DNA from: an uncultured Faecalibacterium sp.
GTDB lineage: Bacteria > Bacillota > Clostridia > Oscillospirales > Ruminococcaceae
Direction of reading: 5' to 3'
DNA: 64,000 nucleotides
NCBI GenBank assembly: GCA_900765105.1
Contig: CAAFQM010000126.1
Coordinates: 122-64,121 of the forward strand
The position numbers and the translations under genes were made by a program. This document shows, one piece after another, positions 1,342-5,200 of this stretch. Under the pieces are notes generated by a model. The model saw only the letters and a list, made by a program, of their open reading frames with translations. It was not told where the DNA came from and made no database searches. The number at the start of each line of letters is the position of its first letter. The stretch's first letter is position 1.

Positions 1342-1373
1342 CAAAAGAAATGACAAAAAATCACAAAACCCTA

Positions 1374-1402
1374 TTGCAAAATGATTTCAAAAGAGTTACA
1401 AT
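1374..1402 (+). promoter_or_regulatory. Sigma-A type promoter for the orphan sRNA
   Basis: TTGCAA (1374-1379), 17 bp, TACAAT (1397-1402). Confidence 0.7.
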
Positions 1403-1408
1403 ATGGTT

Positions 1409-1586
1409 ACAGCATGGGCAATAAACCCTGCTGAGTGTGAAATCTTTTTCTTCTTGTTTTTGGGATATCGGGCACGGGTCCTCCTCCTCCGGCTGTTCTC
1501 CTTCACAGCTGTGACCCATGTGCCACACAGGCGATATCCCGCTTCGTGTGCAAAAAAGCCCGTCCTTTCTCCGGACGGGCTTTTTT
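1409..1586 (+). ncRNA. Candidate small regulatory RNA with CU-rich loops
   Basis: Bounded by promoter and intrinsic terminator; nested stems GGGATATCG/CGATATCCC, GGCAC/GTGCC, GGGTC/GACCC, GCTGT/ACAGC; no credible + strand CDS. Confidence 0.6.
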
Positions 1587-1590
1587 GCAC
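1548..1590 (+). terminator. Intrinsic terminator (potentially bidirectional)
   Basis: GTGCAAAAAAGCCCGTCC-TTTCTCC-GGACGGGCTTTTTTGCAC. Confidence 0.85.
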
Positions 1591-1810
1591 CCTGAAAACA
1601 GCTGTTGCGCCGGGAAAGTATGACCTTACGCCGTTTTGGTGGGCATTTTGCCTGTTTTTCTGCAAAGGACATTTGCAAAGTTTGGCGGGGCAGGGGTTTG
1701 TATTCTGGCCGGCTTTGTGGTATTGTATATACAACAATTTATAAGTTGCAAACATGAATTGATTTTGTTGTAGAATGCTTTTGCTGCGATAAGAGAAAAG
1801 GAGTTTGAAC

Positions 1811-5116: not shown

Positions 5117-5200
5117 TGCCGCCGACGGGGGTCGAACCCGTACTCTGTCTCCAGAAAGGGATTTTAAGTCCCTCGTGTCTGCCAATTTCACCACAGCGGC
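5117..5200 (-). tRNA. tRNA-Leu (TAA)
   Basis: Reverse complement GCCGCTGTGGTGAAATTGGCAGACACGAGGGAC-TTAAAA-TCCCT...GGTTCGACCCCCGTCGGCGGCA; long variable arm; upstream TTGACA-17-TATTAT promoter (5243-5215). Confidence 0.95.

Follow-up and report, generated by a model that had tools for sequence, protein, structure and literature searches.

The window analysed here is a 64,000-nucleotide stretch of a contig from an uncultured Faecalibacterium sp., a genus of abundant human gut commensals that are dominant gut anaerobes. Near its left end, two plus-strand genes flank a noncoding interval. A gene of the acyl-ACP thioesterase family (607 to 1341) is the upstream neighbour, as in 17 of 23 loci of the genus, and guaB, which encodes IMP dehydrogenase (PRK07107; 1811 to 3325), lies downstream in all 23. 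The 90% cluster to which this guaB protein belongs includes a member named F. prausnitzii. Between them, on the same strand, a 178-nt sRNA is predicted at 1409 to 1586, its start inferred to lie 7 nt past the -10 hexamer and its end set at a T run. Homologues measure 155-188 nt in the 22 gap-free genus loci that were aligned; the remaining locus, L022, carries a gap of Ns and was left out. Farther along the window, a tRNA gene with a long variable arm (RF00005) occupies 5117 to 5200 of the minus strand.

The sRNA is preceded by a sigma-A-type promoter, TTGCAA-17-TACAAT (1374 to 1402; hexamers at 1374-1379 and 1397-1402), whose hexamers and spacing are exact in 23 of 23 genus loci and which has a TTGACA variant in other genera. 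The transcript would open with a hairpin (1410 to 1433) of variable sequence that folds in all 22 homologues with energies of -4.9 to -13.3 kcal/mol. A U/C-rich single strand, termed seed A, follows at 1439 to 1460. Nested stems P1 to P3 (1462 to 1540) then expose CTCCTCCTCC at 1481-1490 and the loop TCTCCTTC at 1497-1504. Within these segments are two sites complementary to Shine-Dalgarno (SD) sequences. Seed B, the internal loop CUCCUCCUC (1481 to 1489), is kept in distant homologues and costs about 0.1 kcal/mol to open. Seed C, the hairpin loop UCUCCUUC (1497 to 1504), is specific to the genus and predicted to be unpaired in the 22 homologues (P 0.73-1.0), and its 8-mer complement, AAGGAGAA, is present in 110 of 2084 SD regions. 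Seed E, the conserved linker CUUCGUGUGC (1542 to 1551), is also genus-specific, with CUUCGUGU invariant in 22 of 22 homologues. The gene ends in an intrinsic terminator (1549 to 1589) that has a core stem at 1558-1580, a T run at 1581-1586 and the loop TTTCTCC. A sequence-only reading of this DNA had proposed the promoter, 5' hairpin, U/C-rich strand, nested stem and terminator, and each is found where that reading put it. Overlooked there were a set of direct repeats in the promoter and the status of the U-rich strand as the best conserved seed.

Folding of positions 1405-1600 gives -82.9 kcal/mol, with a z-score of -7.6 that is inflated by the terminator and that none of 200 shuffles equals. 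The claim that the stems exceed chance also holds in the alignment of 22 homologues, where 97.6% of stem cells are paired and double changes affect 23 of the 37 pairs, a result matched by 0 of 500 shuffles. Such shuffles can be beaten by related sequences, and slid controls, which serve as a second comparison, reach 41-49% pairing. Double changes occur in 7/9, 6/6 and 2/6 pairs of P1, P2 and P3, respectively, and in 8/16 pairs of the terminator, which is 99.7% paired across homologues. A simple terminator scan did not list this element, probably because its stem reaches into A/T runs. The invariant portions of the RNA are single-stranded: the U-rich strand of seed A, the CCUCC internal loop of seed B, the UCCUUC loop of seed C and CUUCGUGU of seed E. 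By comparison, the terminator loop varies freely in sequence, and the proposal that TTTCTCC serves as a further anti-SD site is not sustained.

A covariance-model search identifies the core of this RNA (1457 to 1564, plus strand) as the IMPDH RNA, Rfam family RF02994, at 124 bits (gathering threshold 95.4) and E 4.4e-28. The alignment spans model positions 1-108, so that the match is full length and the nested structure is the same. The RNA had been taken for an orphan outside any named family, a description that this match overturns, along with its claim to novelty. RF02994 is entered as type Gene; sRNA, and has a single copy in the genome. Its name refers to a position upstream of an IMP dehydrogenase gene, which is where it lies in the window. 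Of the roughly 178 nt, 108 are covered by the model, which leaves out the 5' hairpin, the terminator and all but the last bases of seed A. The motif reportedly originates from Weinberg et al. 2017. It is not named in the main text of PMC5737381, and a literature search that took in this main text found no paper on IMPDH RNA function. Nor was a paper found on sRNA control in Faecalibacterium. The window RNA is a copy of a catalogued motif, and the function given to it here is predicted. What is added here are the boundaries of its gene, a wider family missed by Rfam, a case against a cis-acting role, and named seeds with candidate targets.

The motif is present in 22 of 24 same-genus genomes and in 0 of 16 genomes of other families. 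A search of 150 other genomes of the family with RF02994 returned no genuine match; four weak matches in other genera (L024-L027) are attributed to chance. Diverged homologues are nevertheless visible when the region upstream of guaB is compared in the 28 best non-self loci. The promoter pattern has one match each in 34 of 301 family genomes, and its reversed control has none. Among the 32 matches inspected, 28 carry the RNA and 4 are chance occurrences. With one more found by synteny, 29 distant RNAs are known from 14 other genera. RF02994 matches none of 18 distant loci at its gathering score, whereas a covariance model trained solely on 16 of the other-genus RNAs recovers the window RNA with a score of 40 bits (E 2.6e-7) and has no match in 14 control loci. 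Matches of that model near E ~4e-4 are unreliable; two of them, L054:1336-1475 and L059:3015-3156, comprise a gene end plus a terminator and are not second copies of the RNA. An exact promoter-plus-seed pattern had no match among 374 genomes that represent other families of the order, a result that holds for the exact pattern and does not prove absence.

The distant copies bear directly on whether the RNA is a cis-acting leader of guaB, such as a riboswitch or attenuator, as the Rfam name might suggest. Such a role would fit the invariable position upstream of guaB in the genus, and an alternative fold allows seed E to pair with the bulge CACAGGCG. Among the 29 distant copies, however, only 18 lie directly upstream of guaB. 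Two run in the opposite orientation, away from it (L054, L059), three are separated from it by an intervening gene, and four either sit upstream of a different gene on another contig or lie 8 kb off; the last two are at contig ends. A leader would always be upstream and co-oriented, and 9 of the 29 copies are inverted, separated or unlinked. In addition, guaB has its own promoter-like site, TTGTAT-17-TATTGT with a TG element (1698 to 1726, plus strand), which a regular expression matches in 19 of 23 loci, and a similar site is seen by eye before guaB in genomes without the adjacent RNA. The terminator is nearly perfectly paired across homologues, with no evident antiterminator. As a pairing target guaB is also undistinguished: it stands at 390 among 2032 genes for seed A, and no site for seed B or C was scored in it. 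The 18 distant copies still next to guaB and one guaB leader (L231) with the seed match speak the other way. Because of the displaced copies, the separate promoter-like site and the terminator pairing, a leader function is very unlikely. The name 'IMPDH' records synteny.

Two features of the guaB upstream region were seen in passing. Conserved blocks AAAGTATGAC and AAAGTTTG (1615-1700) precede the guaB promoter, are kept where the RNA is not adjacent, and possibly constitute a regulator site for guaB. In three of 23 loci (L008, L011, L013), the guaB 5' UTR harbours a MITE-like insertion of 160 bp, bounded by the terminal inverted repeats GGTGTATCTG...CAGATACACC, between promoter and ribosome binding site (RBS) and about 250-410 nt past the motif. 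A remnant is present in L010 and none in the genome of the window.

The opposite flank raises the idea that the RNA is a 3'-end element of the thioesterase mRNA, either a stability element or a processed 3' UTR fragment, with no promoter of its own. No terminator was found between the thioesterase stop codon (1341) and position 1374, and the thioesterase gene is still upstream in L078, L079 and L088, where guaB is not downstream. Yet the promoter hexamers and their spacing are invariant, and in 6 of 23 genus loci and in L065-L067, L069, L083 and L084 the RNA is retained although the gene before it is a different or a divergent one. This explanation is slightly less credible even than the leader.

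Least credible of all, to the point of being nearly dismissible, is a sense/antisense pair resembling a type I toxin-antitoxin system, in which the RNA would oppose a small open reading frame on the minus strand. The window does have GGAGGAGG followed by GTG at 1475, and the minus strands of distant homologues read SD...ATG AAA AAG. The 22-codon frame offered as an alternative in the sequence-only reading is, however, not conserved: a start codon follows GGAGG in only 6 of 23 genus loci, where frames encode 7-41 amino acids, and antisense frames in distant homologues range from 5 to 100 amino acids without conserved length. The antisense peptide is not hydrophobic. A minus-strand promoter-like site, TTGCAA-18-TACAAT (1751-1722), exists in 1 of 23 loci and is probably a chance match.

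The reading preferred here, that of a stand-alone RNA acting in trans, draws on what the distant homologues preserve. In all 30 of them (the 29 copies above plus one basal Faecalibacterium), UUUUCAU is followed by an anti-SD run, giving each RNA unpaired anti-SD and anti-AUG segments. In short homologues, 5-11 nt separate the two elements (7-10 nt, within one strand, in forms like L078, L079 and L093), a spacing that mirrors SD-spacer-AUG-AAA-AAG; in long homologues a stem lies between them. Seed A reads CUUUUUCAU, the complement of AUG-AAA-AAG, in distant homologues and CUUUUUCUUCUUG in most Faecalibacterium. Homologues from genus g38 (L057:936-1125, L069:1312-1503) carry two anti-SD sites, one located 5 nt after UUUUUUCAU and the other in an internal loop.

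Pyrimidine-rich loops could also be sites for a protein or the ribosome, making the RNA a decoy or scaffold and not a pairing partner. Such a role would suit an RNA whose rigid scaffold presents several invariant single-stranded motifs, the seeds are generic, and PMC3091779 raises a protein site for a conserved nonamer of the streptococcal csRNAs. Against this, the family-wide motifs are exact complements of AUG-AAA-AAG and the SD sequence, arranged in mirror order and, in short forms, with initiation spacing, and the scaffold is gone from the ~70-80-nt forms L078 and L079. As for 6S RNA, model RF00013 does not match the window RNA, and the genome has a separate 6S gene (C20:9283-9487). Protein binding is an unlikely explanation, although the least unlikely of those opposed to a trans-acting, base-pairing RNA.

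The promoter of the proposed trans-acting RNA contains an array of direct repeats (1350 to 1412, plus strand). Units of the form TT(A/G/T)CA(A/G) begin at 1374, 1385, 1396 and 1407, with an 11-bp period, and two degenerate units are found further upstream at 1351 and 1361. GTTACAA is present at the -10 position in 50 of 50 promoters. Positions 1395-1411 fit, on the minus strand, the WalR box TGTWAH-N5-TGTWAH (consensus from PMC9210968). Repeats of this type occur 249 times in 26 genus genomes, versus 114 for the reversed pattern, and ten exact copies are in this genome; with a matrix of the promoter units, 11-bp spacing is only mildly enriched genome-wide (40 versus 15-33). The repeats are likely the site of an OmpR-family response regulator. 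Units overlapping the -10 and +1 positions hint at repression, and those upstream suggest activation.

Three candidate response regulators are encoded at C265:7575, C147:3407 and C339:11661. The best WalR/YycF candidate scores 256 bits against a YycF cut-off of 340, and its kinase, which shows no PAS domain, 233 against 725. The WalR consensus is satisfied as well by PhoP-type TTTACA repeats found at pstS and at Na/Pi transporter genes. Two conserved response regulators are present in 27 and 30 of the 30 RNA-bearing genomes; neither promoter has the sRNA-type repeat, and one has TTCACA-type repeats. A literature search for a ResD consensus yielded nothing relevant, and a link to ResD is not claimed.

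Several other features were noted alongside. Repeats of the type TTTACA-N5-TTTACA (G000:C339:13539-13555, C238:14162, C223:7706, C194:8947) precede a pair of Na/Pi cotransporter-like genes, along with pstS and a small membrane gene, and are a likely Pho box of the genus. TTCACA-N5-TT(C/A)CAY repeats, noted by eye upstream of the response regulator at G000:C147:3407 in many genera (L261-L290), suggest autoregulation. A van-type cluster (G000:C136:5760-11543) has a VanR-family regulator that scores 394 bits against an NCBIfam cut-off of 350, with neighbours that by eye resemble VanS, D-Ala ligase, a carboxypeptidase and a membrane racemase.

Metatranscriptome contigs give a weak hint that the locus is transcribed. 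Contig pieces over about 1430-1560 appear in two of four RNA runs (X1 and X3), but they are unstranded and may include DNA carry-over. Runs X9 and X10 have no pieces over the RNA, a gap that proves nothing. All four runs consist of assembled contigs, with shares of 0.04-0.08. No Hfq was found in the genome, which is 85% complete.

Candidate targets were sought in a gene set of 2343 genes from a simple caller of our own, some of whose starts will be wrong. Seeds directed against the SD sequence and AUG-Lys-Lys match hundreds of genes. No 9-nt start is more frequent in the genome than ATGAAAAAG (34 of 2084 genes), GAAAAAGAT is the commonest 9-mer at coding positions 3-11 (n=16), and AAAAAG also heads the internal Lys-Lys pairs (930 of 2213), so that target specificity is presumed. 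Five distant genomes have 24-33 SD-ATGAAAAAR sites each, one of which is the RNA's own antisense strand. Starts of the form SD...AUG-AAA-AAG are common to many exported proteins. In the window copy, CAU has changed to CUU and the seed reads GAAAUCUUUUUCUUCUUG; the copy retains only the anti-SD and anti-(G)AAAAAGAU parts.

Two groups of exported proteins stand out among the predictions. The 5' part of seed A complements (AT)GAAAAAGATTTC, the MKKIS start of several solute-binding lipoproteins, and the best two-site prediction is a lipoprotein gene of this kind. Of 709 two-site genes, the best 100 include 11 RR-type lipoproteins, whose enrichment is weak for single seeds, with 4, 3, 5 and 7 in the top 100 for A, B, C and E. 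The 3' part of seed A matches the leaders of exported FAD_binding_2 proteins, six of seven of which have an FMN_bind domain. According to PMC8238504, this group includes flavinylated respiratory reductases. When 2032 genes are ordered by their match to seed A, the seven full-length reductase genes stand at 2, 5, 7, 57, 137, 148 and 245, and in the corresponding list of 1619 for seed E three of them stand at 2, 4 and 5. In none of 150 trials did shuffled seeds equal this for A, in its own genome or in relatives, or for E in its own genome, and they did so in 1 of 150 for E in relatives; seed E in the leaders of 23 relatives shows no clear difference from background (p 0.08). Allowing one mismatch, CAAGAAGAAA is found at 28 genes genome-wide, six of the seven reductases among them, and the best of 120 permutations reaches five. 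An exact seed-SD-ATG pattern, shaped with the reductases in view, has 16 matches in 41 genomes, of which 11 are real genes, six of these being the reductases. Leaders predicted as targets include those of g0591 (C82:1962), g1208 (C173:4762), g1187 (C170:23492) and g1366 (C205:4644). The reductase set itself was picked after the top hits had been seen, and its members are related and not independent.

Covariation between seed and target presents a weak case for their co-evolution. CUUCUUG is missing from the seed in three genomes, and these same three have no match to reductase g1187 (at E<=1e-60), but kin are not independent. Two CAU-type genomes hold other such flavoproteins, and five parsed leaders pair with the window seed at -10.8 to -16.8 kcal/mol. 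Direct targeting of exported FAD/FMN reductases is a tentative, post hoc prediction that has perhaps a little over one chance in three. Further repeats, CTTAAC/GTTAAG (G000:C90:4025-4221, C212:805-954; L159-L161, L167, L168), separate a two-component operon from a divergent flavin reductase gene and also stand upstream of several reductase genes in relatives; they look like a second regulator box.

The IMPDH motif is probably the core of a stand-alone, trans-acting sRNA of about 178 nt that is predicted to block translation initiation. This view is supported by a promoter and a terminator of its own, stems that covary, pyrimidine segments that are conserved and unpaired, and a position independent of guaB. 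The earlier proposal of a ~180-nt trans-acting repressor directed at ribosome binding sites stands to that extent, with conserved anti-SD and anti-AUG segments now added, and repression itself remains a prediction. In the mechanism envisaged, an OmpR-family response regulator would bind the 11-bp repeats and set sRNA expression. The ancestral RNA would direct UUUUUCAU against AUG-AAA-AA(G) and CUCCUCC against the SD sequence. In most Faecalibacterium, the U-rich seed would have become GAAAUCUUUUUCUUCUUG, which matches the MKKI(S) starts of exported proteins as well as a AAGAAGAAA element just upstream of the SD sequence of the exported FAD_binding_2/FMN_bind reductases. Pairing would be Hfq-independent and repress translation at initiation regions.

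Taken to its fullest extent, this scheme describes a two-component-controlled analogue of csRNAs or RoxS in the Ruminococcaceae, with an ancestral seed aimed at SD...AUG-AAA-AAG that Faecalibacterium rewired to a leader element of flavin reductases, thereby switching extracellular electron disposal. That version is speculative and, on balance, doubtful. If the reductases are true targets, the RNA would connect extracellular redox chemistry with a sensor and provide a clear case of seed evolution from anti-start-codon to anti-leader pairing. A catalogued family also gains a testable function.

Three known systems are closest. The streptococcal csRNAs of the CiaR regulon share unpaired anti-SD as well as anti-start-codon (CAU) segments and an intrinsic terminator with the RNA family described here. 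As presented in PMC3091779 and PMC4507080, csRNAs are 87-151 nt long, have a hexamer-N5-hexamer promoter repeat and operate in hosts without Hfq. They occur as siblings, whereas the window RNA is single copy; no csRNA family is among the 13 Rfam matches at E<=10; the CiaR box, TTTAAG-N5-TTTAAG, differs from the TT(A/G/T)CA(A/G) unit; and the repeats of the window RNA, unlike those of csRNAs, also overlap the -10 and +1 positions. RoxS/RsaE has comparable C-rich unpaired regions, and PMC4409812 describes two-component control (ResDE/SrrAB) and redox-related targets, which in the present case are predicted only. The family motif here is CUCCUCC/UUUUUCAU and not a UCCC-type C run. Listeria LhrC likewise displays several CU-rich sites in loops and single strands and, according to PMC4132741, is under response-regulator control, has a surface-protein target and uses its terminator loop. 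The window RNA differs in being single copy, in its unconserved terminator loop and in belonging to a genome where no Hfq was found. The Rfam models for RoxS/RsaE, LhrC, RNAIII and FsrA do not match the window RNA. By analogy, it most likely works like csRNAs, RoxS or LhrC without belonging to those families.
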